From an uncultured Clostridia bacterium (GTDB lineage Bacteria; Bacillota; Clostridia; TANB77; CAG-508), in assembly GCA_934180065.1 (NCBI GenBank), contig CAKPRA010000004.1, positions 4,786-68,785 on the forward strand: 64,000 nt of DNA, in the 5' to 3' direction. The first letter of the stretch is position 1, and every line of letters begins with the position of its first letter. The notes beneath the pieces were generated by a model. It saw nothing but the letters and a program-made list of their open reading frames with translations. It ran no database searches and was not told the DNA's origin. Below, one piece after another: positions 10,731 through 39,116 of the stretch. A program made the position numbers and the translations under genes.

Positions 10731-10746
10731 ATGAAAGGAGTTTTTT

Positions 10747-10983: not shown

Positions 10984-11039
10984 AATATGTTGACAAAGAA
11001 AAAATTTAATGCTAACATATAAAACAATTAAAATAACTA

Positions 11040-11250
11040 TGTTAAAAAGAAAATTAGTAGAAATCTATAATTCAAAATAAAGAGAGATAATGGTTGGTGT
11101 TAATTATCAGAATATAGATTCCGAATTACAATTCTTATAGTAGTTACGTTAAAGATTACGAAAATCTAAAATAAGGCAAAGTAAAATTTGTAAAAAAAGG
11201 TGGTACCACGAGCTAATTCGTCCTTTAGGATTAATTAGCTCTTTTTGTGT
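11040..11250 (+). promoter_or_regulatory. T-box riboswitch leader of tyrS
   Basis: The conserved T-box sequence aaaggtggtaccacgag (about 11195-11212) is followed by a terminator hairpin gctaattcgtcctttaggattaattagc and a T-run. Confidence 0.7.
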
Positions 11251-11382
11251 ATAATGGAATTTCTATTATAACATTATAAAAATTATAAAAAAAGCAATGC
11301 CACAAAAAGAGAAATAGTTTGAAAGAAATAAAAAGCTTTCATAGCTATATGTGCCTTTAGAAAGAAAGGAAGGGAATTTATT

Positions 11383-12546: not shown

Positions 12547-12617
12547 AACATAACATAAATTTACAAGTAGATAATAAGATTTATAAAATAATAATCACGC
12601 AAAATTAGGAGGAAAAG

Positions 12618-17734: not shown

Positions 17735-18322
17735 ATGAAAAAAATTACAAAAATTATGTTAGTATTAGTAATGTCAATAGTAGCTTTAACAATGTTTGTA
17801 ACAAAGTCAAATGCTATGACAGCAAGCGAGTTAAAAGCTTACATATGTAATGAAAAAGGAATAAACGGAACAAAATTGGTAATAAGAGATGGAGATAAAG
17901 TAAAGGTTGAAAAATTCTTTGCAAATAATGAAATGACAGATGACCAAGCAAATAAAATAAAAGCTATAATAGATAAAGGAGTAGCATTAATGAATGCAGA
18001 TGGTGCAACAGAGCCAAATCAATTAAGCTCTAAAGCCAAAAAACAAGAGCTATTATCATATGCTCAAGAAGCTGCAGCTGTTATGGGATTAACAGTATCT
18101 TATGATGCAACAGAAGAAAGATTAGACATATACAAAAATGGAGCATTATATGATTCATTAAATTGGGGAGTAACAAAATCAAGCAAAGGTTCAACAGAAT
18201 CAGCACTTGTTCAAACAGGAACAACAAATTATGTATATATATTAATGGCAGGAATAATGTTAATTGCCGGCATTATGCTAGTTGTATCAAGAAAGAAAAG
18301 ATTAAGTGCAGAAGCAAAATAA
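17735..18322 (+). CDS. secreted protein with a C-terminal sorting-signal-like tail (LVQTG, then a hydrophobic stretch, then RKKR)
   Basis: Signal peptide. The tripartite C-terminus resembles a sortase substrate. Sits next to the sortase gene. Confidence 0.55.
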   Translation: MKKITKIMLVLVMSIVALTMFVTKSNAMTASELKAYICNEKGINGTKLVIRDGDKVKVEKFFANNEMTDDQANKIKAIIDKGVALMNADGATEPNQLSSKAKKQELLSYAQEAAAVMGLTVSYDATEERLDIYKNGALYDSLNWGVTKSSKGSTESALVQTGTTNYVYILMAGIMLIAGIMLVVSRKKRLSAEAK

Positions 18323-18944
18323 TCAAATAGCTAAAAGATGGCAAACAATAGAAGCAACTATTATAGATGTAATAGTTGCTTTTATTATTGTTATAGCAAT
18401 AATTCTTACTACTAAAATATTATTTGGAAAACAAATAAAAAAGGCAATTGAGGTAGTAGATATGATATCCATAAAAACAGATAATAGCATAATACCAGAA
18501 ATAAAATTTGACCATGAAAAAAGCACAATAATAAATTATCCTGTATATGGAAGTAGATATGGAAATATAAAAATAGAATCACTAGATATAAGTTTACCAC
18601 TATACTATGGCGACAAATTATCTATATTAAGAAATGGAATAGGACAATCAAGCGGAAGCTATTTTCCTGGAGAAGGCGGATCTATAATATGTATGGGACA
18701 TAATACAAAAGCATTTTTGTATAAGCTTCCTCAAATCAAAAAAGGAGCTATAATCGAAGTAGAAACAACATATGGAACTTTTAGATATAAGGTTGATAAT
18801 ACTAAAGTAGTAAATATGTATAATGTTGATGAACTTCCAATACAAAAAGATGAAGAAATATTAATGTTATATACATGTTATCCTGTAAACGGATTAGGTC
18901 ACAAAACGGATAGATTTGTCGTTTATGCAAAAAAAGTCGAATAA
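18306..18944 (+). CDS. sortase family transpeptidase
   Basis: N-terminal TM anchor and catalytic TLxTC-like motif (LMLYTCYP). A His-containing loop (CMGHNTK) is present. Confidence 0.7.
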   Translation: MQKQNNQIAKRWQTIEATIIDVIVAFIIVIAIILTTKILFGKQIKKAIEVVDMISIKTDNSIIPEIKFDHEKSTIINYPVYGSRYGNIKIESLDISLPLYYGDKLSILRNGIGQSSGSYFPGEGGSIICMGHNTKAFLYKLPQIKKGAIIEVETTYGTFRYKVDNTKVVNMYNVDELPIQKDEEILMLYTCYPVNGLGHKTDRFVVYAKKVE

Positions 18945-19055: not shown

Positions 19056-19880
19056 ATGAAAATAGTACGAAAAATAATTTCTTATATTTTTTCAATATTA
19101 TTAGTCACACTAATGTTTGCAACAATAATATTATCAATGGTAAATGCAGTAATATTTAGCAAATCAAATATAAAAAATAAAATGCAAAAAGTGGACTATT
19201 ATTCAGAAATAAGTAATATAATAAAAGATTCAGCAAACAACTATATAATGCAATCTGGATTTGATGAGTCAATAATGGATAGTGTAATACCAAAAGAAAA
19301 AATAAATAATGACATAGATAAAGTTATAGATGCTATATATGATGGTAAAGAAATAGATATATCAACAGAAGAAATAAGAGCAGGCTTAGATGAAAATGTA
19401 CAAAAATACATACAACAGAATAATTATAAGGTAGATGCTCAAGCTCAAAAAGACATAGCAAAATTTGAAGAAAAAATAGAATCAATATATGCAAATAGTA
19501 TAACATATTCAAAAAATGCGATAAAAGAAGTCGTAAAATACTTTAAAATGGCTAAAAGAATTACAAGATTAATGCTAATTGTAATTTCAATTTTATTAAT
19601 AATATTAGCATTCATAACATATAAAATAAATAGAGCATCATTTGGAATCTCATTAGTAGCAACAGGGATAATATGCATATTTATAAAATGTTATTCAAGT
19701 TTAAATATAGCTGTAAATAATATTTTAATGGTAAATAAAACTTTTTCAAACTTAATGATAAGTTTAATAAACCAAGTAGTACAATATATATTTATATGTG
19801 GTATTATATTGACTATTTTGGGAATAGCATTAATTATACTTTTTGAAAGAAAATCAGCAAGCGAAAAATATGAAAATTGA
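19056..19880 (+). CDS. membrane protein, unknown function
   Basis: N-terminal and C-terminal TM segments. Confidence 0.45.
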   Translation: MKIVRKIISYIFSILLVTLMFATIILSMVNAVIFSKSNIKNKMQKVDYYSEISNIIKDSANNYIMQSGFDESIMDSVIPKEKINNDIDKVIDAIYDGKEIDISTEEIRAGLDENVQKYIQQNNYKVDAQAQKDIAKFEEKIESIYANSITYSKNAIKEVVKYFKMAKRITRLMLIVISILLIILAFITYKINRASFGISLVATGIICIFIKCYSSLNIAVNNILMVNKTFSNLMISLINQVVQYIFICGIILTILGIALIILFERKSASEKYEN

Positions 19881-19920: not shown

Positions 19921-20199
19921 TTGCAATTGAATTTTGACAAAAATGAATACTACATAACAAAATATAAGGCAGAAAAATGTCGAATAAAATGAAACAAACA
20001 AAAATGCCGGAATATATTGACAAATATACAAAAATATAGTTTAATAAATGTCGAAATTCAAATGAGAAAATTAACATAATTAGTGCATAATTAGAAAAGC
20101 AAGCCATTCTCTAATATGCGAAAAAAGTTCAAACATAAGAGAAAGATATTGTATAGGGCAATATTTAAAGGATGTAAAACAAAAAATGGGGGATGTTTT

Positions 20200-20962
20200 A
20201 TGGAAAAAGTAATGGCACAAATAAAGGAAGTAGAAAATAGACAGACTATATCTAAATCTGTAATAAAGAGCGAAATAAAATCAATGAAGAAAGTTTCTAA
20301 AGTGTTTAGAGCTTTGCAGATTTTGAGATATAATACTAAATTAGTTACATATAAATTTATAAAGAGAACTGTAGATATATGTGCAGGGTTAGTAGGAACT
20401 ATGCTATTATTGCCAATAATGGCTGTCGTAAAAATAGCATATTTAAAACAAGGAGACCATGCACCTATTTTGTTTAAGCAGAAGAGAATTGGAAAAGACG
20501 GGAAAGAGATTGAAATATATAAAATAAGAAGTATGGTATGTAATGCAGAAGAAGTATTAAAAAAATTGATGAAAGAAGATCCAAAGATTAGAGCGGAATA
20601 TAAGAAAAATAAGAAATTGGAACATGACCCCAGAGTTACAAAAATTGGAAAAATATTGCGTAAAACAAGTTTAGATGAATTTCGGACAATTTATCAATTT
20701 ATTAAAGGGCGATATGTCACTTATAGGTCCACGCCCATATTTGCCACGTGAAAAAGAAGATATGGGAGAATATTATGAAGATATTATAGCATGCAAACCA
20801 GCTCTAGGAGGAGTATGGCAAGCTAGAGGACGATCAAATGTTGGTTTTGAAAATAGATGTAGATTAGATAGATTTTATAATAAACATAAGGGATTATGGT
20901 TTGACTTTAAGATATTGATTTGGACTGTAGTATCAGTATTTCAAAGTAAAGGAGCAAGATAG
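20200..20962 (+). pseudogene. short-form polyprenyl-phosphate sugar phosphotransferase (bacterial sugar transferase), interrupted by a +1 frameshift near 20683
   Basis: Frame 1 reads KIRSM...DPRVTKIGKILRKTSLDEF and frame 2 continues as FGQFINLLKGDMSLIGPRPYLPRE. Together these form the conserved sugar-transferase core, but split across two frames. Confidence 0.7.
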
Positions 20963-20972
20963 GGGGAAAATA

Positions 20973-22616
20973 ATGGAATTTATAATATCAGCAGTGTTAG
21001 CATTGTTATTATGTAGTTTTGAATTATCAAAGTATATTATACTATTTATAATTTTCAGTATAACGTTTGCTATACTAAAAATGTTTTTTTCAAAAAGAAT
21101 AAAAAAAATGAGGAAAAGCGTAATATTACAAATAGGTCCATCTCTTGAGGATAAAGGTGGAATGGTAACTGTAATGGAGCAAATTGTTTCATCAAGATTA
21201 AAAAAAGAATATAACATAATTCATATACCAACATATATAGTAGGAGATAAATATAAATTATTTATAAAAGCTATATTCAAATTTGTTTTATATAAAATAC
21301 AATACAATGTAGAATTAGTACATATTCATACTGCATCAAATGGAAGTTTTTTTAGAAAGTCAATATTTGTAAGACTATGTAATTTGACAAAAACAAAGGT
21401 TATATTGCATGCACATGGGGCAGGCTTTAAAGAGTTTTATGAGAAAACAAATAAAAAAGAATATATAAAATCTACATTAAATAAAGTAGATAAACTAATA
21501 GTACTATCTGAAAGTTGGAAAGAATTTTATTCAACGCTAATGAACTCAGAAAAAATAGAGGTAATATATAATAGTATGGATATTCCAGAAAACATACAAA
21601 AAAGTAAAAATGAAGTAACACATGGGTTGTTTTTAGGAAGGCTAGGAAAAAGAAAAGGAACATATGATTTAATTGATGCTGTAGAAAAATTATCAAAAGA
21701 AAATGTAAAGTTAAAAATAACTCTAGCTGGTGATGGAGAAATAGAAAAAGTAAAAAATGTGATAAAAGAAAAAAAATTAGAGCAATATTTTGAAGTTGTT
21801 GGTTGGATTGGAAAAGAAAGAAAACAGGAATTATTAAAAAGTTCAGATTTTTTAGTACTACCATCATATAATGAAGGTTTGCCAATGGCAGTACTTGAAG
21901 CAATGAGCAGAAAACTATTAGTAATTTCTACATATGTTGGAGGGATTCCAGAAGTAATAAGAGACAAAGAAAATGGTTTGTTGATAGAACCTGGAAATAT
22001 AGAACAATTAACTAGTTCACTAAAAATAGCTATAAATGATAAATTGAAATGTGATGAGATGGCTGAAAAAGCATATCAGACAGTAAATTCTAAATTTAAT
22101 GAGAAAGATATGATAAATAACATAGAAATGATATATAAAGCATTAATATATAAAAATATTAAATTATGCTTAACTTCATCAGCAGGTGGACATTTTATGC
22201 AATTAAAACAGCTATTTAAAATGGCAAATAAATATGATTGGTTTATTGTAACAGAGAAAAACACAATATCAATGCAATTAAAAAATAAATATAAAATGAA
22301 ATTTCTAATACAACAGGAAAGAAAAAGTGTGGACTTCATATTTAAATTTGGATTAAATATTTTAAAATCAATATGGATAATATACTCACAAAATCCAGAT
22401 GTAATAATAAGTACAGGTGCAGGAGCAACATATGTTTTATGTAAGCTAGTGAAATTAACAGGTGGAAAAGTTATATTTTCAGAGAGTTTTGCAAAAATAA
22501 AATCTCCTACAGTAACAGGGCAGAAAGTATATAAATTTGCTGATGACTTTTATGTGCAGTGGCCGGAAATGTTAAAATTCTATCCAAATGCAAAATATAA
22601 AGGAGGCATATACTAA
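20973..22616 (+). CDS. fusion of a GT4 glycosyltransferase and an Alg14-like domain (CpsF/EpsE-type)
   Basis: The N-terminal half has GT4 features and an E-x7-E-like region (GLPMAVLEAMS). The C-terminal 150 aa reads LCLTSSAGGHFMQLKQL..., which matches Alg14/Cps14F. Confidence 0.7.
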   Translation: MEFIISAVLALLLCSFELSKYIILFIIFSITFAILKMFFSKRIKKMRKSVILQIGPSLEDKGGMVTVMEQIVSSRLKKEYNIIHIPTYIVGDKYKLFIKAIFKFVLYKIQYNVELVHIHTASNGSFFRKSIFVRLCNLTKTKVILHAHGAGFKEFYEKTNKKEYIKSTLNKVDKLIVLSESWKEFYSTLMNSEKIEVIYNSMDIPENIQKSKNEVTHGLFLGRLGKRKGTYDLIDAVEKLSKENVKLKITLAGDGEIEKVKNVIKEKKLEQYFEVVGWIGKERKQELLKSSDFLVLPSYNEGLPMAVLEAMSRKLLVISTYVGGIPEVIRDKENGLLIEPGNIEQLTSSLKIAINDKLKCDEMAEKAYQTVNSKFNEKDMINNIEMIYKALIYKNIKLCLTSSAGGHFMQLKQLFKMANKYDWFIVTEKNTISMQLKNKYKMKFLIQQERKSVDFIFKFGLNILKSIWIIYSQNPDVIISTGAGATYVLCKLVKLTGGKVIFSESFAKIKSPTVTGQKVYKFADDFYVQWPEMLKFYPNAKYKGGIY

Positions 22617-22617
22617 A

Positions 22618-23112
22618 ATGAGAATATTTGTAACATTAGGAACACAGAAATTCCAATTTGATAGACTATTAAAAAAATTAGATGAACTTGTAGATCAGAA
22701 TAAAATAAAATCTGAAGATTTAACTGTTCAATGCGTATATGCAGAGTATCAACCTAAAAATTTTACTATGTTTGCAATGAAACCGCAAAACGAAATAGAA
22801 GAAATAATGAAAAATGTAGACTTAGTTATAACACATTCTGGAACAGGAAGTATCATTACTTCATTAAAGTTAGAGAAAAAAATAATAATTGTTCCAAGAT
22901 TAAAAAAATATGGGGAACATGTTGATAATCATCAAGTTGAATTAGCAGAAGTATTTAAAGAGAAAGTAAATGTGATTGTAGTAGATGATATGAATGATTT
23001 AGAAAAAGCAATACAAGAAAGTATGACACATAAGTATGGAAAATGGAAATCCAATAATAAAGAGATGATTGAGAGCATTGATAGCGATGTTAAAGCTACT
23101 ATAAAATTTTAA
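22618..23112 (+). CDS. Alg13-like glycosyltransferase subunit (CpsG/EpsF-type, GT28 C-terminal domain)
   Basis: MRIFVTLGTQKF...ITHSGTGS. An RBS (ggagg) lies 12 nt upstream. It pairs with the upstream Alg14-like domain. Confidence 0.75.
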   Translation: MRIFVTLGTQKFQFDRLLKKLDELVDQNKIKSEDLTVQCVYAEYQPKNFTMFAMKPQNEIEEIMKNVDLVITHSGTGSIITSLKLEKKIIIVPRLKKYGEHVDNHQVELAEVFKEKVNVIVVDDMNDLEKAIQESMTHKYGKWKSNNKEMIESIDSDVKATIKF

Positions 23113-23135
23113 TTAGATAAAAGGAGTATAAAACA

Positions 23136-24008
23136 ATGTTAAGAGAAGTATACAGATGGATAATTGCCTTGGTATCTGGGATATCACCAAAATTAGCTAG
23201 TAAAATTTATTATAGAACAAAATTACATAAGAAATTAGATATTGTTCAGCCAAAGTTATTTAATGAGAAATTAATGTGGTTAAAACTAAATGAATATGAA
23301 AATAATAAGCTCATCACAAAATGTGTTGACAAATACAAAGTTAGAGAGTATGTAAAGCAATGCGGATGCAGTGAAATTCTAAATGAATTGATAGATGTTT
23401 ATGATAATGCAGATGAGATTAATTTTGAAAAATTACCTGACAAGTTTGTTCTTAAATGTAACCATGCGGCAGGATATAATATAATATGTAATGATAAAAG
23501 CAAATTAGACAAAGAAGAAACAAGAAAAAAATTGAAAAAATGGATGAAGATAGATTATTGGAAATTTGTTGCTGAGGTTCAATATAAAAATGTTGATAAG
23601 AAAATTGTATGTGAAAAATTTCTTGAATCAAAAGATGGTAATGCAATAGAAGACTATAAAATATATTGCTTTAATGGAGTACCTGAATTTTGTATGGTTT
23701 GTATTGGTAGAAATTTAGGAAAACCAACATACTACTTGTTTGATAAAAATTGGAAATTGATGAGAATAAATCCAGCAGGAATAAATGCACCAGAAGGTTT
23801 CACAATAGAAAAGCCAAAATGTATAGATCAAATGTATGAATATGCCAAAATTTTATCGAAACCATTTAAATTTGTAAGAGCTGATTTTTATGATTATAAT
23901 GGCAAACCAATATTTGGAGAATTAACTTTTACACCAGCTGGATGCATTGACAAAAATTATACAGATGAAGCGCAACTTAAGTTAGGAGAACTAATTAATC
24001 TAAAATAA
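23136..24008 (+). CDS. TupA-like ATP-grasp enzyme
   Basis: LKCNHAAGYNIIC and the CFNG....TFTPAGC layout match the TupA-like ATP-grasp family (teichuronic-acid/capsule context). Confidence 0.6.
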   Translation: MLREVYRWIIALVSGISPKLASKIYYRTKLHKKLDIVQPKLFNEKLMWLKLNEYENNKLITKCVDKYKVREYVKQCGCSEILNELIDVYDNADEINFEKLPDKFVLKCNHAAGYNIICNDKSKLDKEETRKKLKKWMKIDYWKFVAEVQYKNVDKKIVCEKFLESKDGNAIEDYKIYCFNGVPEFCMVCIGRNLGKPTYYLFDKNWKLMRINPAGINAPEGFTIEKPKCIDQMYEYAKILSKPFKFVRADFYDYNGKPIFGELTFTPAGCIDKNYTDEAQLKLGELINLK

Positions 24009-24023
24009 TAAGGATGGGAAAAT

Positions 24024-25013
24024 ATGAAGACAATAGGTTTCTTAAAAAGTGACAAAGAAAATGAAAAAAGAATATCATTATATCCGCGAGATATAAAAAA
24101 TATAAAAAATAAAGAATATATATATATAGAAGAAAATTATGGAGCAGATTGTAATATATTAGATGAGGAATATATGTTAGCAGGATGTAAAGTAGTACCA
24201 AGAAATGAAATATTAAAAAAAGATATAATCTGTGATGCCAAAATAGGTGATGCTGGCTATTTAAAAGATATAAAGAAAAAAACAATATTTGGTTGGATAC
24301 ATGCGGTACAAAACAAAGAAATTACAGATATTTTAATAAATAATAAATTAACTGCTTTTGCTTGGGAAGATATGTATGAGAAAAATAGACATGTGTTTTG
24401 GAGAAACAATGAAATAGCAGGAGAAACAGCAGTAATGCATGCGTTATTGTTACATGGAATTATGCCATATGATGCAAAAGTTGGAATATTGGGAAATGGA
24501 AATACAGCTAGAGGAGCATATAGAGTACTTACTCAATTAGGAGCAAGTGTAACAATGTATAATAGAAAAATGGAGGATTTATTCAAAGAGGAATTAAATC
24601 AATTTGATATAATTGTTAATGCAATTTTATGGAATGTAGATAGAAAAGACCACATAATAAATAAAGAAGATTTAAAAAAACTAAAAAGAGGTTCGTTAAT
24701 AATAGATGTAAGTTGTGATAAAAACGGAGCAATTGAAACTAGTATACCAACAACTATAGAGAATCCTATATATAATGTGAATGGAATAACTCATTATGTA
24801 GTAGATCATACACCTGCTTTAGTATATAAAACTGTATCAAATGAAATATCTAAGAATGTATCGAGATTTATAGATCAACTTATAGAAGAAAATGTATCTC
24901 AATGTTTAAAAAAAGCACAAATTACAAAAGATGGTATTATTTTGGATGAGAAGATTTTGAAATATCAAGGACGTGTTAATATAAATGAAAAAAGTTATAA
25001 AAAAGATTTATAA
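24024..25013 (+). CDS. AlaDH/PNT-fold dehydrogenase resembling N5-(1-carboxyethyl)-L-ornithine synthase (opine-type)
   Basis: Rossmann motif GILGNGNTARGA. The size (329 aa) and overall layout match the CEOS / alanine dehydrogenase N-terminal and C-terminal domains. Confidence 0.5.
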   Translation: MKTIGFLKSDKENEKRISLYPRDIKNIKNKEYIYIEENYGADCNILDEEYMLAGCKVVPRNEILKKDIICDAKIGDAGYLKDIKKKTIFGWIHAVQNKEITDILINNKLTAFAWEDMYEKNRHVFWRNNEIAGETAVMHALLLHGIMPYDAKVGILGNGNTARGAYRVLTQLGASVTMYNRKMEDLFKEELNQFDIIVNAILWNVDRKDHIINKEDLKKLKRGSLIIDVSCDKNGAIETSIPTTIENPIYNVNGITHYVVDHTPALVYKTVSNEISKNVSRFIDQLIEENVSQCLKKAQITKDGIILDEKILKYQGRVNINEKSYKKDL

Positions 25014-25851
25014 AAAGATGACTGGTGGATTATATAAAGTTTCGGCTGTAAAAAAAGCAAAAATAGATTATAGATTGGCTACTGGCAAGAAACTAAATTT
25101 GAAGAATCCGCAGAATCTAAATGAAAAATTACAATGGCTTAATTTATATACATATGATGAGAGAAAAGTGAAGTGTGCAGATAAATATTTTGCAAGAGAA
25201 TATATTATTAAACATGGATTAGAGGAATATTTGCCAAAATTAATAGGGGTATATGAAAATGTAGATGATATTGATTTTGAAAAATTACCTGAAAAGTTTG
25301 CACTAAAATGCACACATGGTGCAGGATTCAATATTATTTGTAAAAATAAATCCATTTTAGACATAGAAAAATCTAAAAAAGATTTAAATAAGTGGCTACA
25401 TACGGATTTTGGAATAAGTGCAGGAGAAATGCATTATTCTAAAATGAAACCAAGAATAATATGTGAGGAATTTTTAGATGGTCTTGACAATGATGTTCCT
25501 ATTGATTATAAATTTTTCTGTTTTAACGGCGTACCAAGATTTTTGGAAGTATGTACAGGAAGATTCAAAGCTTTGAAATTTTCATTCTATGACATGGATT
25601 GGAATTTTTTAGATTACCAGTCTAAAAAGTACAAGGGAAAATCAGAATTTATTGGTAAGCCAAAATCTTTTGACAAGATGAAAGAAATTGCGAAATCACT
25701 TTCAAACGGTTTCAATTTTGTGAGAGTTGATTTATTTGATATTAAAGGTAAACCTTATATTGGAGAAATGACATTTACACCTCATGCAGGTAGAATTACT
25801 TCAATGAGCGATGAGGCTTTAAAAAAGACAGGAGATATGTTAATGATATAA
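24985..25851 (+). CDS. TupA-like ATP-grasp enzyme (paralog of 23136..24008)
   Basis: LKCTHGAGFNIIC and CFNGVPRF...TFTPHAG. Clearly paralogous to the upstream ATP-grasp. Confidence 0.6.
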   Translation: MKKVIKKIYKKMTGGLYKVSAVKKAKIDYRLATGKKLNLKNPQNLNEKLQWLNLYTYDERKVKCADKYFAREYIIKHGLEEYLPKLIGVYENVDDIDFEKLPEKFALKCTHGAGFNIICKNKSILDIEKSKKDLNKWLHTDFGISAGEMHYSKMKPRIICEEFLDGLDNDVPIDYKFFCFNGVPRFLEVCTGRFKALKFSFYDMDWNFLDYQSKKYKGKSEFIGKPKSFDKMKEIAKSLSNGFNFVRVDLFDIKGKPYIGEMTFTPHAGRITSMSDEALKKTGDMLMI

Positions 25852-25995
25852 TAAAAACTGAAATATATAACTAAAAATAATGTTAAAGTAAAAAAGTGTA
25901 TGTATATACAAAGTATTATAAAATGTTTATATTATGTGTGTTAAAATTAACATAAATAAGGAAGTGAATAGTATAGTAGAAAGGAGGATATTATA

Positions 25996-27186
25996 ATGCT
26001 TAAATTAAAAAAAATTAATTTATATGATGTTCTTATAAAGATTATATTAATATATACTATGTCTACATTAGTATATAAGTTTTCAAATAAAATTCAATTA
26101 AATAATATATTAGGAATATTGTGTATTATTGATATTAGTGCAATTGCAATAAAAAAGTGTAAAATAAAAGATTTTTGTGTATTAGTATTTATAATATGTA
26201 CAAATCTTAGTGCTATTATTATGACACATGATTTTACAATAACATTAGATCATATATTACATTTTGATTCAACAATATTAACATTATATATAATATTAAA
26301 TAGAAGTTTTAGAGAAAATATACCTATTTTTTTAGAAAAAAATAATAGATTAATGAAATTTGTCATATATTTTTCAATGATAATTACAGCAGTTACTCTA
26401 TTTATACCACAATGTTATGCTAATAATACAGGTGAAATTGTATATGCTGGATTAAGTAATGGAAGTCATACTTTAGCAAGTTGCCTATGTTTAATAAACG
26501 TTGTTATTATGTGTTATTTAAAAAAACAAAAGTTTAAACCAAGTCAACTAATATTATTAGGAATATCAGTATTTGCGATATTTAAAAGTGGATCTAGAGT
26601 ATACTTATTAGCATTGTTGATATTGTTAATCTTATTTTACAAGGATAAAATTAAAAAGTGCTCTTTAAAGCCAATAATTCTTTTAGCGATGAGCTTTGTA
26701 ATTGTCAATCTATTCTTATCATCATCAATGTTTACAAGATTTGTATCAACTACAAATAATCAATACATATCTGAAAATCCAATAGAGGCAATGACAAGTG
26801 GACGAGTTATCTGGTGGAAATATGATATAGAGGCATTTAATGAGTTTAATGTAATTAACAAGCTTTTAGGAAATGGTTTTGATTGTGTATACAATATAAA
26901 TGAAAGCAGATATGGTATGAAAATCTGGGCTCATAACGATTTCATTCAATTACTATTAAGTATAGGGATATTTGGATTGTTAATATATATTTATATAATA
27001 ATAAAATGTACTATAACGATAAAAAAAGAAAGTAATGTAAAATATAATTCGATTTTATGGTTTATATATGTTATTGGTTCAGCATCATTTAATGGATTCT
27101 ATACTCAACAACATTATGTATTTAGTGCAATTTTATTAGCATATTTAATGATTAACAATAGAAAGGAAAATAGTGATGAAATGTGA
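25996..27186 (+). CDS. O-antigen/capsule polymerase (Wzy-like) polytopic membrane protein
   Basis: About 10 TM helices. Wzy_C-like loop (WAHNDFIQLL). Confidence 0.6.
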   Translation: MLKLKKINLYDVLIKIILIYTMSTLVYKFSNKIQLNNILGILCIIDISAIAIKKCKIKDFCVLVFIICTNLSAIIMTHDFTITLDHILHFDSTILTLYIILNRSFRENIPIFLEKNNRLMKFVIYFSMIITAVTLFIPQCYANNTGEIVYAGLSNGSHTLASCLCLINVVIMCYLKKQKFKPSQLILLGISVFAIFKSGSRVYLLALLILLILFYKDKIKKCSLKPIILLAMSFVIVNLFLSSSMFTRFVSTTNNQYISENPIEAMTSGRVIWWKYDIEAFNEFNVINKLLGNGFDCVYNINESRYGMKIWAHNDFIQLLLSIGIFGLLIYIYIIIKCTITIKKESNVKYNSILWFIYVIGSASFNGFYTQQHYVFSAILLAYLMINNRKENSDEM

Positions 27187-28264
27187 GGCAAAGGTTACAG
27201 TTATAATACCACTGTATAATAGTGAAAAGTATATAAAAAAATGTGTAGAATCTATAATTGAGCAAACATATAAAAATATTGAGATACTAGTAATAAATGA
27301 TGGTTCAACTGATAATTCTTTAGGCGTTTTAAATGAAATAAATGACTCTAGAATAAGGATTATAAATCAAAATAATCATGGGGTAAGTTATTCAAGGAAC
27401 ATGGGGATAAAGAGTAGTTTGGGAAAGTATATCTTTTTTATTGATGCAGATGATTGGATTCATTCTAAAACAATAGAAGATTTAGTAAACATTGCTGTAT
27501 GCAATAATGTAGATATTGTAAAATGCAATTTTTGTCGAGAGAATGAAAACAAAATGGTAAAAAATGATATTTCAAATTTAAATAATATATGTAAAAAAAA
27601 TATATTGAAATGTGATTATGAAAATCTAATATACGCAAAAATACCAATTACCAATTTTTTTAATGTTGTGTGGGGGCAATTAATTAAAAAAGATATAATA
27701 TCAGAACTATTTGATGAAAGGATTTGTTTTGGAGAAGATTTTTTATTTAATGTTAAATTATTAAAAAATAGCAAATCAATTTACATATATAATGAGGTAT
27801 TATACCATTATACAACAAGTAATAATGGAATAAATAGAAATAAAAGTATTGAAAAGACAAAAATAAAATGTGAAGACTTGATGAATGTATATGCTGAAAT
27901 TTTATCAATATTAAAAGATAATATAGATAAGGAAATTTTCAAAAAATTTCAGATAAAATTTTTAGAAGATATATTAAATAAAATTTTTGATGTGTTATCT
28001 ATTAATTTGAAAATTAAAGAAAAAGTGAAATTTATTGAAACGATATTTGAGGATAAAAAATATAATAATTGTATTGATGAACTAAAGCCAAATGAGTTAA
28101 AAATAAAAAAATCGAAAAATTCGTTATTATTAAGACAAATGGTTAAGAAAAGAAAATATACAATTTTTATTATATCATGTTTTGTGTATATTCCTATCAA
28201 GAGAATATTAAAATTCTTTTCTGAAAGGAGTAAATATTTTGAAAAAAGAAGATCTAATAGCTAG
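27173..28264 (+). CDS. family 2 glycosyltransferase
   Basis: VIIPLYNSEKYIKKCVESIIEQTY...NDGSTD, then DADD. Confidence 0.8.
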   Translation: MMKCEAKVTVIIPLYNSEKYIKKCVESIIEQTYKNIEILVINDGSTDNSLGVLNEINDSRIRIINQNNHGVSYSRNMGIKSSLGKYIFFIDADDWIHSKTIEDLVNIAVCNNVDIVKCNFCRENENKMVKNDISNLNNICKKNILKCDYENLIYAKIPITNFFNVVWGQLIKKDIISELFDERICFGEDFLFNVKLLKNSKSIYIYNEVLYHYTTSNNGINRNKSIEKTKIKCEDLMNVYAEILSILKDNIDKEIFKKFQIKFLEDILNKIFDVLSINLKIKEKVKFIETIFEDKKYNNCIDELKPNELKIKKSKNSLLLRQMVKKRKYTIFIISCFVYIPIKRILKFFSERSKYFEKRRSNS

Positions 28265-28778
28265 AATTAAAGAAGATAAAAAAAATTATAGAGATAATGA
28301 GCCCATTAGAGAAATTTATAAAAAAATAACAAATAATAAAGAAAAACAAATAGAAAAAAGTATAATTTGTGCGAGAAAATATAGATATTATAATGAGAAT
28401 AGAAGTAGTATGATTAATAAAATTAAATTTATATATTATGCAAAAAAAAATAATATATTATCAAATAGAAACCAAATAGAACTTTATGGTCGATTTGGAA
28501 AAAATCTAAAAATTTATCATTCAGGAATAATAGTTAATAAATCAGCTATTATTGGAGATAATGTTAAGATGCATGGATTAAACTGCATAGGTAATAATGG
28601 AGATAGCGGCTCACCAATAATTGGAAATAATGTAGATATAGGAGTTGGAGCAGTTATTATTGGAAACATTGAAATTGCTGATAATATAATAATTGGAGCT
28701 AATGCTGTTGTTAATAAATCCTTTAAGGAAGAAGGAATAACAATAGCAGGAGTACCAGCAAGAAAAATAAAAGGATAG
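28239..28778 (+). CDS. hexapeptide-repeat O-acetyltransferase (left-handed beta-helix)
   Basis: Repeating IGxxxxIGxxVxI hexapeptides in the C-terminal half. Confidence 0.7.
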   Translation: MKKEDLIARIKEDKKNYRDNEPIREIYKKITNNKEKQIEKSIICARKYRYYNENRSSMINKIKFIYYAKKNNILSNRNQIELYGRFGKNLKIYHSGIIVNKSAIIGDNVKMHGLNCIGNNGDSGSPIIGNNVDIGVGAVIIGNIEIADNIIIGANAVVNKSFKEEGITIAGVPARKIKG

Positions 28779-28783
28779 GTGCA

Positions 28784-29887
28784 ATGGAGAAAATGAAGGT
28801 ATATGTAAATGCATATTTAAAATATAATTTGGGAGATGATTTATTTGTAAAAATATTGTCAGATAGGTATAAGAATATTACTTTTTATTCTTATTCAGAT
28901 TATAATTATAAAAATGTGTTTAAATCTAGTAATTTAAAAATATATGGTGGAAATTTCTATAAAATGATAAATAGGATTATTAAGGGTGTAACATTAAAAA
29001 AATACAGATTAGCAGACTCTCTTGTAAAAAGGTATAAGTTTACAATTTTTATAGGTGGCAGTATGTTTATTCAAAATTCTAATAAAGTAGAAAAATCAAT
29101 ATTGGAAAAAGCAAAAGAGTATTATGTATTAGGAAGTAATTTTGGACCATATAATAATAAAGAATATTACAATTACTATAAAAATGTATTTGAAAAAGCA
29201 AATGATGTATGTTTTAGAGACAAAAATTCATATGAGAAATTTAAAGATTTAAAAAATGTTAGATGGGCACCAGATATTGTATTTACACTTGACACATCAA
29301 ACATTAGTATAAAAAACAATAAGAAAGTTGTTATATCTATTATTGATTGTTCAAGAAAGAATAATTGCGAATATAAAGACCGTTATGAGAAAAAAATTAT
29401 TGAAATTTCAGAATATTTTATTAGAAAAGGATATGAAGTTATAATGATGTCTTTTTGCAAATTTGAGGGAGATGAATTAGCAATTGAATCAATCTATAGT
29501 AAGTGCAATGATGATTTAAAACAAAAATTAAAGAAGTATTATTATAGAGGTAATATTGAAGAAGCATTGAATGTAATGGCTGATTGTCAGATTATTGTTG
29601 GCACTAGATTTCACGCTAACATTTTGGGGTTGTTATTAGGAAAAAAAATAATTCCAATTGCATATAGTGAAAAAACTATAAATGTACTAAAGGATATGAA
29701 TTTTGAGGGTAAAATAATCAAATTAAGAGAAATAGATAAGCTTAATGTTGATAATATACTCGATAATCAAGAATTTAAATATAAAAATAATGACATTTCA
29801 TTTCAAATAGAAAATGCAGAAAAACAATTTGTTATGGTGGATGAAATACTAAGGGAAGAGGTAAGAGATGGAAGAATCAAGAACTAA
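28784..29887 (+). CDS. polysaccharide pyruvyl transferase (CsaB/WcaK family)
   Basis: N-terminal YLKYNLGDDL, and a later GTRFHANI motif. Confidence 0.65.
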   Translation: MEKMKVYVNAYLKYNLGDDLFVKILSDRYKNITFYSYSDYNYKNVFKSSNLKIYGGNFYKMINRIIKGVTLKKYRLADSLVKRYKFTIFIGGSMFIQNSNKVEKSILEKAKEYYVLGSNFGPYNNKEYYNYYKNVFEKANDVCFRDKNSYEKFKDLKNVRWAPDIVFTLDTSNISIKNNKKVVISIIDCSRKNNCEYKDRYEKKIIEISEYFIRKGYEVIMMSFCKFEGDELAIESIYSKCNDDLKQKLKKYYYRGNIEEALNVMADCQIIVGTRFHANILGLLLGKKIIPIAYSEKTINVLKDMNFEGKIIKLREIDKLNVDNILDNQEFKYKNNDISFQIENAEKQFVMVDEILREEVRDGRIKN

Positions 29888-31448
29888 AAATGCAATTAGA
29901 AATATTCAAACTGGTGCAGTAGTTCAAATGGTAAATAAAATAATGGCATTTGTTGTAAGAACTGTATTTATAAGAGTTCTTAATTCTGAATATTTAGGTG
30001 TAAATGGTTTATTTACAAACGTATTAACAATATTATCATTTGCAGAGCTAGGAATTGGAACAGCAATTATCTTTAATATGTACAAACCTGTTGCTGAGAA
30101 CAATATTGAAAAAATTAAAAGTTTAATGCAATTATATAAAAAAGCTTATAATGCAATAGGAATTATAGTTTTTTTACTAGGTTTATGTATAATTCCATTC
30201 ATGAATTTTATAGTGAAGGATGCTCCTAATATAAAAGAAAATCTTATATTAATATATATATTATTTTTATTTAACACAGCATCGTCATACTTTTTTACAT
30301 ATAAAAAATCCATAATATCAGCGCATCAAAAACAAAGTGTAATAAACAATCTTGACAGTATTTTTTATTTATTAAAAAGTATAATAGAAATCATATTCTT
30401 ATTTTTGACAAAAAATTTTATAATTTATTTATTTATTGAAATACTAGCAACATTTTTTGAAAATATTATTTTATCAATAAAAGCTGACAGAATGTATCCA
30501 TATTTAAAGGAGAGAAAAATAAAAAAATTAAGTAATGATGAAAGCAAAGTAATTTTTGGAAACGTCAAATCTTTAATTATTTATAAATTTGGTGGAGTTA
30601 TAATGAATGGTACAGATAATATTTTAATATCTGCACTTGTTAATGTGAGTACAGTGGGATATTGTTCTAATTATGTTTTGATAATCAATTCAATAAAATC
30701 TATAATAACTTCGGCTTTAAATGGTATTACAGGAAGTGTAGGAAACCTTAATGCAGTAGGAGAACCTAAACAAAAAGAAAAAGTTTTTTATCAAATAACT
30801 TTTGCAAATTATATAGTATATTCTTTTTGCTCAATTGCCTTTATAACTTTGCTAAATCCATTTATCAGCTTATGGTTAGGACAGAATTATGTTTTGGAAA
30901 TTGCTGTTTCAATATCGTTAGCAATAAGTTTTTTTATAGAAGGTTTAAGAAATCCAGGATATACATATAGAACTACATTAGGTTTATTTCAGAAAGGTAG
31001 AACTACTCCATATATTGGAGCAATTACAAATATTATTTTGTCAATTTTATTATGTAAATTATTTGGAGTAGCTGGAATATTTATTGCAACAGGAATAGCT
31101 CAATTGGTATCATATTCATGGATTGACCCATATTTAATTCATAAATATGAATTTAAAACTCCAGTAAGTAAATATTTTAAAAAATATCTTTATTATGTAG
31201 TTATATTTATTATAAATTCTCTTATTACTTTTGAAATTTCAAATCTGATTTCTATTCCAGGAATTATAGGATTAGTATTTAAGGCAATAATTACTTGCGT
31301 TATATGCAACGCAATTAATTTAATTGCATTTTGTAAAACAGATGAATTTAAAGAGTTAAAGTTAAAATTATTTGATCCATTATTAAAGAAAATAGGTAAG
31401 AAATTATGTTATAAATCTAATAATGAAATTAAAAGGAAGTGTAAATAA
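29868..31448 (+). CDS. Wzx-type oligosaccharide flippase (MOP superfamily)
   Basis: 12 to 14 TM helices. The N-terminus [32 protein letters not shown] is typical of flippases. Confidence 0.75.
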
Positions 31449-31449
31449 A

Positions 31450-32616
31450 ATGAAAATTGCAGTAGCAGGAACAGGATATGTTGGTTTATCATTAGCAACA
31501 TTATTAAGCCCAAATAATGAGGTAATAGCATTAGATGTTATACCGGAAAAAGTAGAGAAAATAAATAACAGAATAAGTCCAATTAAAGACAAAGAAATTG
31601 AGGAATTTTTCAAAACAAAAGAATTAAATTTAAAGGCAACATTAGATTACAAAGAAGCATTTGAAGGTGCAAAATTCATAATAATAAGTACACCAACAAA
31701 TTATGACGATGAAAAAAATCATTTTGATACATCATCTGTAGAAGATATAATTCAAAAAGTAATCAGCATGAATATAAATACAACAATGGTGGTAAAATCA
31801 ACAATACCAGTTGGTTTTATAAAAGCAATGAAACAAAAATACAATATAGACAATATAATGTTCAGCCCAGAGTTCTTAAGAGAAGGAAAGGCCTTATATG
31901 ATAATCTATATCCATCAAGAATTATAGTGGGAGAAAAATCCGAAAGAGCACAAGAATTTGCTAACTTACTAAAAAATGCAAGTTTAAAAGATAATGTTGA
32001 AGTAAAATTCATGGATTCAACAGAAGCGGAAGCGGTTAAATTATTCGCAAATACATACTTAGCTCTAAGAGTAGCATATTTCAACGAATTAGATACATAT
32101 GCTGAAATTAAAGGCTTAAATACTAAAGACATAATTGAAGGAGTATGCCTAGATCCACGAATTGGAAGTCATTACAACAATCCTTCATTTGGTTATGGTG
32201 GATATTGTTTACCAAAAGACACTAAACAATTATTAGCAAATTATGACAATGTACCACAAAACTTAATAAGAGCTATAGTTAGATCAAACAGAACAAGAAA
32301 GAAACACATAACAGAAATGATAATGCGTAAAAATCCAGAAACAGTTGGAGTATACAGACTAACAATGAAAAGTGGTTCAGATAACTTCAGAGCAAGTGCA
32401 ATTCAAGAAATAATAGACAGATTAAAATTAGAAGGTGTTGATGTTATAATATACGAACCAACATTAAAAGCAGAGCAATTTAATAATTGCAAAGTTATAA
32501 ACAACTTTGAAGAATTTTCTAAAAAATCAGATGTAATTTTAGCAAACAGACTTGAAGAAGAGCTAAAGGTTGTGAAGGATAAAGTTTATACAAGGGATTT
32601 GTATAGTAGGGATTAG
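31450..32616 (+). CDS. ugd: UDP-glucose 6-dehydrogenase
   Basis: [14 protein letters not shown] Rossmann fold. Catalytic GGYCLPKD. Confidence 0.9.
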
Positions 32617-32645: not shown

Positions 32646-32680
32646 AAAAACATGGGAATAAAAATCCATGTTTTTTATTT
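32646..32680 (+). terminator. rho-independent terminator ending the polysaccharide locus
   Basis: aaaaacatgggaataaaaatccatgttttttatttttttc. Confidence 0.65.
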
Positions 32681-33100: not shown

Positions 33101-33523
33101 ATGGAAGAAATAAGAGAACAGCTATTAAGAAAAATACCAAACAATGTTGATGGTAGTATATATATATCATATGAGGAAAGTGAAAAAAGCCAAAGAGAAA
33201 TTGAAAAATTAAAAAATGAAAAGTGGGTTGATTATATAGAAAGTTCGGGAAAAGGTAAGATTAAGGTATTTGTGTTAAATCAATATTTAAATAATGAAAA
33301 ATTCGAACAGGATAAAACAGAAGTGATAAAGAAAATTACAAAAAAAATTGAAAATGGATATAAAGGAGATAAAATTTTTAATTTAGATATTGGAGTTATG
33401 GGAAATTATAGAATTGAGATATGCAATTATTTGGTAAATGCAGATTATATTGCGTCATATGAATTAGTAGGAAATAGTAAAATTTCATGTAAAATTAATA
33501 GAAAAAGAGTTGAAACGAAGTAA
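33101..33523 (+). CDS. hypothetical protein
   Basis: ORF with an RBS. No recognisable family. Confidence 0.4.
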   Translation: MEEIREQLLRKIPNNVDGSIYISYEESEKSQREIEKLKNEKWVDYIESSGKGKIKVFVLNQYLNNEKFEQDKTEVIKKITKKIENGYKGDKIFNLDIGVMGNYRIEICNYLVNADYIASYELVGNSKISCKINRKRVETK

Positions 33524-33949: not shown

Positions 33950-35371
33950 ATGAATATATATGGAAGAAAAATTATTATTGATAGAAAAATGGGGAAAATA
34001 TTATGTGAAAGTGAAATTGTAAAAAATAAAGAATACAATTGGTTATTAAATCAATTATTATATACGGGAAATACCAAGAAAAATGAAAAATATGAATTAA
34101 ATATTCAAGATATTCAAAATTTAGATTACTCACAAAAATCATTTTTAGACTCGTCTGCATATGACGAATTATATAAAACAGCTTGTAACGAATGGTTTAT
34201 TTATGATATAGTAGATAATGAACAAGAGTCAGAATGCGCTTTGTGTGGAGAAAAGAAAAATAAAAAAAAGTACTACATTAAAAATATAAAAAACGGAAAA
34301 ATATTAAATATTGGTAGTACATGTATTGAAAATTTTAGAGATATAAGAGACAAAAATGGAAAAACAATAAAGCAACTTGATAAAGAGTTTTTGACAAGAG
34401 CAAGAGAGAAAAAATTAAATAATTTGTATCCTGGAATTATTAAAAGAATAGATTGCTTTTATAAAAGAGTAGATGACCTACCAACAATTGTAAATGAAAA
34501 TTTGGAAAAGAAATATAACGAAAAATATTCTAAAATCAAAACTATTTACGAGAAATATAAAAAGAATAAGAAACTTGATACAAGATTAGCATATGAGATA
34601 AATGATTTATTAAATAAAGGCGATGAAATATTTGAATTAATACATAAGGATATTGATGAGAAAAGAAAAGATGAATGGTATATATCTAAAGAAATAAAAG
34701 ATTGGTGCTATAGAAATTATGATGATAATGTTGATACAATAAATTTTCTAAAAAGAGATGGTGTAATAAAGTTAAGGTCTGCTTGGAGAATAACAGAAAG
34801 CAATTTAGTAAATAAAGTAGTCGAGAAATTTAATAGAATTTTTATACAATATAATACAAAAATTGTTCAGTATAATAATCAAAATAAAAAAGTTATACTT
34901 AATATAGAAACTAGAAATAAATATACTAAACAGATAAATTTAGAGCACTCATATAAAGACTTGTTGATAAATTATGGAGAAGAAATATTTGAGAAAAAAT
35001 CTGTAATAAATGAAACATCTATCGAGCAAATAATAAAAGATTCAAACATAAATGATGTTATATCTTTAAATAGAGCATTAGAGTGTATAAAAAATCTAAC
35101 AAATAATGTAGAGATAAAAAAATGTGACTTTGATTATAATGAGTTAATTATTAAGCTTTACCAAGATAACAAACATTATTATAAAATTAATGCCAAAAGG
35201 TGTATTAATAACTTTAAAGAAAATATATATAATAATAAATTTATTGAAAATGATAAGATTACGACATATTTAAATAAAAATGCTGAAATTATAAGTATTA
35301 TAGATTATGATAAGAAAGGAATTTCTAATGAAAGTATTGAACATTTAATTAGAAAAGGTTATGTACAATAA
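33950..35371 (+). CDS. large hypothetical protein with a CxxC...C cluster, immediately upstream of the RM system
   Basis: 473 aa. RBS (aggagg). Contains CALCGEKK...GSTCIENF. Unknown family. Confidence 0.45.
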   Translation: MNIYGRKIIIDRKMGKILCESEIVKNKEYNWLLNQLLYTGNTKKNEKYELNIQDIQNLDYSQKSFLDSSAYDELYKTACNEWFIYDIVDNEQESECALCGEKKNKKKYYIKNIKNGKILNIGSTCIENFRDIRDKNGKTIKQLDKEFLTRAREKKLNNLYPGIIKRIDCFYKRVDDLPTIVNENLEKKYNEKYSKIKTIYEKYKKNKKLDTRLAYEINDLLNKGDEIFELIHKDIDEKRKDEWYISKEIKDWCYRNYDDNVDTINFLKRDGVIKLRSAWRITESNLVNKVVEKFNRIFIQYNTKIVQYNNQNKKVILNIETRNKYTKQINLEHSYKDLLINYGEEIFEKKSVINETSIEQIIKDSNINDVISLNRALECIKNLTNNVEIKKCDFDYNELIIKLYQDNKHYYKINAKRCINNFKENIYNNKFIENDKITTYLNKNAEIISIIDYDKKGISNESIEHLIRKGYVQ

Positions 35372-39071: not shown

Positions 39072-39075
39072 TTTA

Positions 39076-39112: not shown

Positions 39113-39116
39113 TAAA

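Follow-up and report, generated by a model that had tools for sequence, protein, structure and literature searches.

Two TupA-like ligases and a CEOS-like dehydrogenase in a clostridial polysaccharide locus

We analysed a stretch of 64,000 nucleotides from contig CAKPRA010000004.1 of an uncultured Clostridia bacterium (assembly GCA_934180065.1), which is referred to as the window and has a G+C content of about 27%. It contains a co-directional block of genes on the + strand (20116-32616, ~12.5 kb), which probably represents a Wzx/Wzy-type polysaccharide locus according to Pfam and NCBIfam. In this order, the block encodes a priming phosphoglycosyl transferase (PGT) with a Bac_transf domain, a fused GT4-Alg14 protein, Alg13, TupA1 (a TupA-like ATP-grasp protein), a dehydrogenase resembling N5-(carboxyethyl)ornithine synthase (CEOS), a second TupA-like ATP-grasp protein, TupA2, as well as Wzy, a GT2 glycosyltransferase, an acetyltransferase, a pyruvyl transferase, a Wzx-like protein and the UDP-glucose dehydrogenase Ugd (Table 1). 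These proteins recur in the same order in over 20 independent metagenome contigs, so that an assembly artefact can be ruled out. An earlier note had taken the two ligase genes and the dehydrogenase gene between them together to predict a glucuronic acid (GlcA) polymer decorated with amino acids or N-carboxyalkyl amino acids. Its coordinates for the three genes are exact when compared with a mechanical list of open reading frames (ORFs), its domain calls (ATPgrasp_TupA, AlaDh_PNT_N/C) were reproduced with Pfam, and the neighbouring genes it named, i.e. those of Ugd and of the pyruvyl and acetyl transferases, are indeed found by Pfam and NCBIfam. However, the comparison of related loci indicates that TupA1 and the dehydrogenase form a cassette of their own, which lies beside an independent TupA2.

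The dehydrogenase matches PF01262 (AlaDh_PNT_C, 2.1e-25) and PF05222 (AlaDh_PNT_N, 5.5e-15), i.e. the two domains found in alanine dehydrogenase (AlaDH) and in the transhydrogenase protein PntA. It scores far below the NCBIfam cut-offs of both families, reaching 95.7 bits with the AlaDH equivalog TIGR00518 (cut-off 391.85) and 63.5 and 46.8 bits with the PntA models NF006942 and TIGR00561 (cut-offs 383 and 444.4, respectively). A pntB-like neighbour was not detected by Pfam among the neighbouring ORFs of the locus, and no NCBIfam hidden Markov model (HMM) for CEOS matched the protein. In pairwise comparisons, the dehydrogenase aligns over its full length with the product of a Lactococcus lactis plasmid gene annotated as CEOS (32% identity, 164 bits, E = 8e-53), compared with 25% identity, 96.7 bits and E = 4e-27 for Bacillus AlaDH, while its PntA matches in the PDB are at 1e-10 or weaker. 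Homologs are numerous (3174 clusters at E <= 1e-5) and strongly conserved, and many, including those of Myroides and Cobetia at 59-62% identity, bear the NCBI name CEOS.

A joint alignment revealed that two segments of AlaDH, comprising 12 and about 33 residues, are missing from both the dehydrogenase and CEOS. At the site of the acidic residue that confers NAD specificity, where AlaDH reads VTILEVN, the dehydrogenase reads VTMYNRK and CEOS reads IRMYYRK. The replacement of the NAD-selecting residue by M-Y-(N/Y)-R-K would fit CEOS, which was reportedly described as NADPH-dependent by Thompson in 1989. R16, K73, H93 and D232 align with Arg15, Lys74, His95 and Asp269 of AlaDH, whose roles we take to be those seen in the structures from Phormidium lapideum and Mycobacterium tuberculosis. 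All four residues are invariant in an alignment of 14 family members, and R16, H93 and D232 also remain invariant, with K73 nearly so, if CEOS and AlaDH sequences are aligned jointly. From this we conclude that the machinery for 2-oxo-acid binding and hydride transfer is intact. The AlphaFold model (predicted local distance difference test, pLDDT, 85.6) has a template modelling score (TM) of 0.76 to M. tuberculosis AlaDH, and Foldseek matched it to AlaDH and to domain dI of PntA at TM 0.72-0.78; this PDB fold search returned no CEOS structure.

The dehydrogenase thus has the same fold as AlaDH and PntA dI and, in the case of AlaDH, also the same catalytic residues, but it misses the family cut-offs 4-6-fold and is encoded in a glycan locus, and its chain is ~40 residues shorter and without the acidic residue for NAD specificity. 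With L. lactis CEOS (EC 1.5.1.24) it shares the two-domain AlaDH/PNT architecture, the Arg/Lys/His/Asp set, the two deletions and the MY-x-RK motif, but the 12 residues inserted behind the GWTH motif of CEOS are missing from it, and its helical tail at the C-terminus is longer. A central-metabolism AlaDH or PntA is ruled out by the NCBIfam cut-offs, the pairwise scores and the indel pattern; the enzyme groups with neither of them, and the resemblance to CEOS claimed in the earlier note holds. We therefore predict an opine synthase, i.e. an enzyme forming N-carboxyalkyl amino acids, which would condense pyruvate with ornithine or lysine in an NADPH-dependent manner. At 32% identity, the amine and keto-acid specificities of CEOS are not transferable. 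Saccharopine dehydrogenase, an opine-forming enzyme that acts on the epsilon-amine of lysine, has the same fold, so that the oxo acid need not be pyruvate.

Alternatively, the enzyme could act as an AlaDH and supply a simple amino acid, e.g. L-alanine from pyruvate and ammonia, which would be ligated to GlcA by a TupA protein without any opine being formed. The AlaDH/PNT fold, the best PDB matches, which are alanine dehydrogenases (TM 0.76), and the conservation of four of four AlaDH catalytic residues are in line with this possibility, and alanine amides of uronic acids are known from H. influenzae type d and E. coli O167. Nevertheless, we consider it improbable, given the low score with the AlaDH equivalog, the greater similarity to CEOS (164 vs 97 bits) and the presence of the CEOS-specific deletions and of the NADPH-type motif. 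Moreover, alanine is abundant, so that it is difficult to see why hundreds of glycan loci should encode a synthase dedicated to it.

Both ligases match PF14305 over nearly the entire profile, TupA1 with 154.1 bits (profile positions 1-240 of 241) and TupA2 with 168.2 bits (1-239 of 241), compared with a cut-off of 25 bits. In an alignment of 25 family members each of them keeps 28 of 28 invariant columns, which include K108, E161, R247, D249, E261, T263, F264 and P266, and the catalytic and Mg-binding motifs of ATP-grasp enzymes are present in both (Lys of LKxT, Glu of ICEE, R-x-D and GE-x-TF-x-P). The TupA2 model is of high confidence (pLDDT 92.1, predicted TM score, pTM, 0.90), and its 50 best matches in the PDB consist almost entirely of ATP-grasp ligases joining carboxylates and amines (Ddl, LysX/ArgX, RimK, DcsG, PsnB, PurD), the exception being synapsin, which is also an ATP-grasp protein. 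The TM values of these matches reach only 0.37-0.47, hence there is no close solved relative, and no TupA-like structure was found in this PDB fold search. ATP-dependent amidation of a uronic-acid carboxylate, demonstrated in this family for Cj1438C of Campylobacter jejuni alone (PMC11800379), is the activity that we predict for TupA1 and TupA2.

The two ligases share 44% identity. A neighbour-joining tree places TupA1 within a clade of ligases encoded upstream of CEOS-like genes in Clostridia, and TupA2 forms a lone deep branch. A recent tandem duplication of the ATP-grasp gene is ruled out by this identity value and the separate deep branches.

A member of the TupA family, Klebsiella CfmP, works independently of surface polysaccharides (PMC13419641), which is a caveat for the present assignment. 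A corresponding non-glycan target of TupA1 and TupA2 is unlikely, since the operon context of both genes speaks against it.

Linkage to amide ligases and mosaic structure of the locus

Relatives of the dehydrogenase were collected from one genome per species (185,579 species), which yielded 371 of them, and the best 80 of these 371 loci were examined after classification of the neighbouring genes by Pfam and by HMMs built from neighbour clusters. A TupA-like gene was found in 32 of the 151 slots adjoining the CEOS-like gene, compared with 7 of the 946 other slots in those loci (Fisher p = 9e-23), and in 28 cases it was located directly upstream of the CEOS-like gene, often with a 4-nt overlap. 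If we consider ATP-grasp or adenylating ligases of any kind, they occupy 56 of the 151 adjoining slots and 34 of the 946 others (p = 5e-30), and at least one of them adjoins the CEOS-like gene in 48 of the 80 loci. The alternative ligases in the same position comprise ATPgrasp_ST (PF14397), a RimK-like ATP-grasp and a weak AMP-binding-like protein, and ligases on both flanks were observed in 8 of the 80 loci. Glycosyltransferases, Wzx/Wzy or Ugd are encoded in most of the ligase-bearing loci. The relatives span Clostridia, Erysipelotrichaceae, Bacteroidales, Fibrobacteria and Opitutales. The earlier note had called the chemistry unusual for Clostridia; in gene terms it is common in metagenome-assembled genomes of Clostridia and Bacteroidales, as evident from the 371 genome matches. 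In contrast to L. lactis CEOS, which stands alone in a plasmid/transposon context with stress genes and without glycan genes, the clade of the window dehydrogenase is predominantly found in polysaccharide loci beside amide ligases. For TupA1, the best homologs (64-83% identity) apparently share contigs with the best dehydrogenase homologs in 18 cases, as judged by identical lengths of the longest contig, which is indirect evidence; the shared contig was seen directly in two loci (L001, L097).

Some relatives at 54-59% identity are lone homologs, among them L012, L014, L022, L046, L050 and others from Carnobacteriaceae as well as L036, L038, L053 and L056 of the C. tetani/C. mobile type. Their neighbours vary and include TetR, phosphotransferase systems, solute-binding proteins and CWB2/NAGPA wall proteins. 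Such lone enzymes possibly produce carboxyalkyl amino acids in free form, as is the case in L. lactis. In L051, L071 and L080 (near position 10000), the CEOS-like gene lies between ATPgrasp_ST (PF14397) genes, with four of them around it in L080. This ligase-dehydrogenase-ligase layout with another ATP-grasp family hints at multi-step amide chemistry in some loci. Furthermore, the Escherichia coli plasmid NZ_AP027746.1 (L082, 7022-9098) carries a capsule locus (Wza/Wzb/Wzc, flippase, glycosyltransferases, epimerase, sugar dehydrogenase) with a CEOS-annotated gene, the product of which is 30% identical to the window dehydrogenase. Upstream of this gene and overlapping it, a hypothetical protein of 322 aa is encoded, for which neither a Pfam match nor BLAST similarity to TupA1 was found and which may represent an unrecognised ligase family.

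The closest relatives of the trio contain either TupA1 and the dehydrogenase or TupA2 alone. L097 encodes TupA1 (83% identity) and the dehydrogenase (78%) without TupA2, and its DNA is collinear with window positions 21035-24971 at 80% identity and then ends. Conversely, L099, which has TupA2 and lacks TupA1 and the dehydrogenase, is collinear with 21420-23070, where its cut-off gene before alg13 matches at 80% DNA identity, and then jumps to 24964-25820. Compared with L099, the window thus carries an insertion of 1,894 bp, which consists of TupA1 and the dehydrogenase, and L100 differs from L099 by the same 1,894 bp. The right junction is located in the last codons of the dehydrogenase gene, which accounts for the 11-residue C-terminal extension of the protein (329 aa vs 317-318 aa in relatives) and for its 29-nt overlap with TupA2. 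From these results we conclude that TupA1 and the dehydrogenase represent a two-gene, 1.9-kb cassette inserted between alg13 and TupA2. TupA2 orthologs at 79%, 60% and 57% identity (L099, L089, L090) directly follow alg13 in loci without any CEOS-like sequence, and TupA2 is therefore part of the locus backbone and not of the cassette. One conserved three-gene unit is ruled out by this gene content of the closest relatives and by the loss of collinearity at the borders.

The same trio occurs in a second background, represented by L100 and L101. Window positions 19977-25857 and L100 positions 6850-12722, i.e. the region from the PGT gene to TupA2, are 94% identical at the DNA level, in contrast to only 80-83% for tyrS and bacA, which indicates that the block moved between related species. 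The homology between the window and L100 ends 6 nt past the TupA2 stop codon. This suggests that the 5' half of the locus was recently exchanged between related species, while the 3' half was replaced. The 1.9-kb insertion and the 94% block amid housekeeping genes at 80-83% provide a clean example of how serotype-type diversity arises.

L094 and L093 are syntenic. In L094 (6880-7825) the CEOS-like gene is split over two frames (residues 1-222 and 218-315), and in L093 there is no CEOS-like gene, which possibly reflects an ongoing loss of the dehydrogenase from the cassette.

Predicted decoration pathway and competing explanations

We consider it somewhat probable that the three enzymes decorate a Wzx/Wzy-dependent heteropolysaccharide, in which C6 of GlcA would form an amide with an N-(carboxyalkyl) diamino acid and which would carry a second, different amide. 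Ugd would provide UDP-GlcA, and GlcA is the predicted acid since ugd is present without a 4-epimerase gene in the locus. A glycosyltransferase would place GlcA into the lipid-linked repeat unit, for which the best candidate is the conserved Alg14/Alg13 pair encoded immediately upstream of the cassette; the GT4-Alg14 gene also precedes the TupA genes in L005, L007, L008, L090 and L097. The CEOS-like enzyme would use NADPH for the reductive condensation of a 2-oxo acid with a diamino acid at the amine of its side chain, which would yield an N-(carboxyalkyl) amino acid; the most likely substrates are pyruvate as the oxo acid and lysine or ornithine as the diamino acid. TupA1, nearly always the immediately upstream partner, would activate the C6 carboxylate of the glycosidically bound GlcA with ATP and link it with the opine amino acid via the alpha-amine of the latter. 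The predicted product is a GlcA-6-N-[N-omega-(1-carboxyethyl)-Lys/Orn] amide, a residue type as in Providencia O14. TupA2 would attach an amine of another kind that is available from metabolism; its target would be either the same GlcA, with the amine as an alternative and non-stoichiometric substituent, or another carboxylate of the repeat unit.

Cj1438C, the TupA-like C-terminal domain of Cj1438 from Campylobacter jejuni HS:2, uses ATP and a pre-made free amine, serinol phosphate or ethanolamine phosphate, which is provided by enzymes encoded in the same cluster (PMC11800379). It amidates glycosidically bound GlcA on its C6 carboxylate at the capsule's growing end, and the next glycosyltransferase requires the amide (PMC11800379), which bears out the amide-forming role that the earlier note had ascribed to TupA-like proteins. 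Cj1438C resembles the window ligases in its TupA-like ATP-grasp fold (PF14305 family by the authors' description, not by direct alignment) and in its location in a capsule locus with a UDP-glucose dehydrogenase, where dedicated amine-making enzymes are encoded too. It differs from them by its fusion to a GT2 domain and by the use of phosphorylated amino alcohols, whereas the window ligases are stand-alone proteins of ~290 aa for which an amino acid or opine substrate is predicted. A PF14305 protein of Halalkalibacterium (Bacillus) halodurans, the organism of the namesake TupA/teichuronopeptide locus, is 55% identical to TupA1 and also encoded in a polysaccharide locus, which differs from the window in having FemAB-like and GNAT genes instead of a CEOS-like gene.

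A chemical precedent exists in Providencia rustigianii O14, where N-epsilon-[(S)-1-carboxyethyl]-N-alpha-(D-galacturonoyl)-L-lysine is part of the O-antigen (PMC10609480). This decoration is exactly the chemistry expected of a CEOS-like enzyme acting together with a uronic-acid amidoligase, except that it is found in a Gram-negative O-antigen and on galacturonic acid, whereas GlcA is predicted for the window locus. Carboxyethyl-lysine decorations are also reported for Proteus and Shewanella. In the searchable literature, including a paper on Proteus O-antigen clusters, we found no gene assignment for the carboxyethyl-lysine decoration and nothing tying a CEOS-like gene to glycan decoration, so that the Providencia O14 decoration is linked to the window genes by chemistry only.

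Several observations weigh against the proposed pathway. The catalytic residues of the dehydrogenase are the same as those of AlaDH, and the sequence alone would be compatible with ammonia as the amine. The only characterised CEOS is just 32% identical to it, and the substrates may differ. About 19 of the 80 loci (15 from Carnobacteriaceae and 4 of the C. tetani/C. mobile type) have neither a ligase nor glycan genes nearby. Ligases 54-60% identical to TupA1 are encoded without a CEOS gene in L093, H. halodurans (L095) and Neobacillus (L096), and such a ligase adjoins the frameshifted CEOS-like gene in L094, from which we conclude that the ligase is not strictly dependent on the dehydrogenase. 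Finally, the priming transferase gene of the window locus is frameshifted. Regarding the GlcA polymer with amino-acid or opine decoration postulated in the earlier note, the linkage of the dehydrogenase family to amide ligases in polysaccharide loci and the carboxyethyl-lysine precedent on a uronic acid are in its favour, while the low identity to CEOS leaves the substrates unfixed and the PGT frameshift bears on whether the polymer is made.

A serious rival, although we regard it as rather unlikely, is the reverse order of the two steps, in which TupA1 would first ligate plain lysine or ornithine via the alpha-amine to GlcA and the CEOS-like enzyme would then carboxyalkylate the glycan-bound side-chain amine. 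This order would account for TupA1-like ligases (~60% identity) in syntenic loci without a dehydrogenase (L093) or with a frameshifted one (L094), and both plain lysine amides (Proteus mirabilis O27) and the carboxyethyl-lysine amide (Providencia O14) of uronic acids are known from O-antigens (PMC10609480), as expected if the dehydrogenase were an optional tailoring enzyme that turns a Lys/Orn amide into an opine amide. On the other hand, the Carnobacteriaceae homologs at 54-59% identity stand alone without any glycan context, and C. jejuni makes its amine before the ligation step. L. lactis CEOS is said to act on free amino acids, according to work of Thompson in 1989 and of Donkersloot and Thompson in 1995, which also counts against the reverse order. 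The present evidence fits both orders.

The frameshift in the PGT gene raises the question of whether the polymer is made at all. The PGT ORF stops at 20751, the rest of the catalytic half runs in another frame to 20963, and Pfam Bac_transf covers just profile positions 1-100 of 179 in the ORF. When intact homologs were used in tblastn, the match changed frame at the SLDEF|GQFIN motif. Compared with L100, one nucleotide is inserted, namely a C following GATGAATTT near position 20691, within the catalytic SLDEF-GQF motif. The same 60-mer with the lesion is found in 5 independent metagenome contigs, and the gene is intact, encoding 253 aa, in L100 and L101. The polymer may therefore not be made from the window locus alone. 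It is conceivable, if on balance doubtful, that the locus is decaying or silent in this lineage, so that no polymer would be started and the decoration genes would be relics. Apart from the identical lesion in the 5 contigs and the intact gene in L100 and L101, this is favoured by the finding that there is no other PGT among the window ORFs scanned. However, all eleven downstream genes are full-length ORFs, and the invariant residues of the TupA proteins and of the dehydrogenase are intact. In addition, synthesis could be primed by a PGT from another part of the genome, and no further decay accompanies the lesion in the many samples in which it persists.

The ligases on both flanks of the dehydrogenase could also act on one side chain, one joining the opine to GlcA and the other extending or cross-linking it via a free carboxylate of the opine, which would result in a branched opine-peptide or an inter-chain bridge. 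This is suggested by the loci with ligases on both flanks (8 of 80) and by their mixed ATP-grasp families, i.e. ST/ST in L051, L071 and L080, the last with four ST ATP-grasps, TupA/TupA in L045, ST/RimK-like in L015 and TupA/ST in L067. Conversely, TupA2 is an independent module with its closest relatives (79%, 60%, 57%) in CEOS-less loci, the cassette borders exclude it, and the closest relative of TupA1 and the dehydrogenase (L097) has no second ligase. We therefore assign only a very small probability to this scenario, and an equally small one to the broader claim that the cassette of CEOS-like and ATP-grasp genes is the genetic basis of opine-type uronamides, with an abutting second ATP-grasp extending or cross-linking via the opine carboxylate. 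If true, one would expect branched opine-peptide glycans on the surface of Gram-positive gut anaerobes, and cell-surface polymers of this type have so far not been described.

Returning to the decoration by TupA1, the CEOS-like enzyme and TupA2 as proposed above, both enzyme families and the predicted chemistry were already known separately; the novelty lies in the conservation of the cassette, in its distribution across gut anaerobes and in the mosaic formed with a second ligase. Bacterial surface glycans are shaped in their charge and antigenicity, and probably also in their recognition by phages and the immune system, by amino-acid amides of uronic acids. Carboxyethyl-lysine amides have been known chemically for decades, and with the two-gene signature of a CEOS-like gene beside an ATP-grasp gene they would become predictable from sequence. 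Their range, so far a few serotypes of Proteus and Providencia, would then include hundreds of species of Clostridia, Bacteroidales and other gut or environmental bacteria. In addition, the cassette would provide two enzymes that are easy to assay and could be used to modify glycans chemoenzymatically.

Further features of the locus and its surroundings

Table 1 Features of the polysaccharide locus in the window, with positions, strand and supporting matches.
Feature	Position	Strand	Evidence
Priming phosphoglycosyl transferase (Bac_transf/WbaP-type), frameshifted	20116..20963	+	Pfam Bac_transf
Fused GT4 and Alg14-like domain	20973..22616	+	Pfam Glycos_transf_1 5e-35, Alg14 2.9e-14
Alg13-like (Glyco_tran_28_C), catalytic partner of Alg14	22588..23112	+	Pfam 1.4e-18
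Borders of the 1.9-kb TupA1 and dehydrogenase cassette vs cassette-free loci	23070..24971		DNA collinearity
TupA1, TupA-like ATP-grasp, predicted amidoligase, 290 aa	23136..24008	+	PF14305 6e-45, 154.1 bits
CEOS-like NAD(P)H-dependent dehydrogenase, AlaDH/PNT fold, predicted opine synthase, 329 aa	24024..25013	+	Pfam
TupA2, second, divergent TupA-like ATP-grasp, predicted amidoligase, 288 aa	24985..25851	+	PF14305 3e-49, 168.2 bits
Wzy-type repeat-unit polymerase	25996..27186	+	Pfam Wzy_C 2.8e-09
GT2 glycosyltransferase	27173..28264	+	Pfam Glycos_transf_2 1.4e-34
Hexapeptide-repeat O-acetyltransferase	28239..28778	+	Pfam Hexapep; NCBIfam EpsC/WcaB-like
Polysaccharide pyruvyl transferase	28784..29887	+	Pfam PS_pyruv_trans 3.7e-35
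Probable Wzx-like flippase, weak	29868..31448	+	NCBIfam WZX_like 3.4e-07, far under cut-off; no Pfam match
Ugd, UDP-glucose 6-dehydrogenase, UDP-GlcA source	31423..32616	+	NCBIfam, Pfam
Terminator-like hairpin closing the operon	32646..32675	+	11-bp stem followed by a T-run, 30 nt past the ugd stop; consensus match only

Among the components of a Wzx/Wzy locus, the glycosyltransferases and Wzy are clear, Wzx is weak and the PGT is present but frameshifted; the Wzx-like ORF additionally shows BLAST similarity to the Wzx ORFs of other loci. Ugd stays below the equivalog cut-off of NF011631 (591 vs 757 bits), exceeds that of the NDP-sugar dehydrogenase subfamily TIGR03026 (339 vs 190 bits) and contains 3 of 3 Pfam UDPG_MGDP_dh domains. 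The starts of two genes are placed further downstream by gene callers, at the equivalent of 22618 for the Alg13-like protein (in identical contigs, L083) and at the equivalent of 31450 for Ugd. A chain-length regulator or LCP ligase was not found among the window ORFs scanned, and a promoter scan gave no signal (137 sites vs 129 expected).

The operon is flanked by ORFs of 274, 140 and 473 aa (19056-19880, 33101-33523 and 33950-35371), which are conserved in identical contigs (L083) and gave no Pfam match and no meaningful NCBIfam match. About 1.2 kb upstream of the operon, a small LPXTG-anchored protein and a sortase are encoded in overlapping frames (17735-18944), and both are absent at the equivalent position in L100. 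A restriction-modification system is located ~3.4 kb downstream of the ugd stop (36039-40544). In its methylase of 1010 aa, an Eco57I-like N6-adenine methylase is fused to a TaqI_C specificity domain and to a C5-cytosine methylase, and the convergently encoded endonuclease belongs to the type IIS Alw26I/Eco31I/Esp3I family. Ten ORFs scanned downstream of this system are housekeeping genes and include neither a second PGT nor further polysaccharide genes. The genes asd, dapA and dapB of the lysine/diaminopimelate pathway are found ~23 kb downstream (55697-58925); they are probably unrelated housekeeping genes, with lysine being a candidate substrate of the dehydrogenase.

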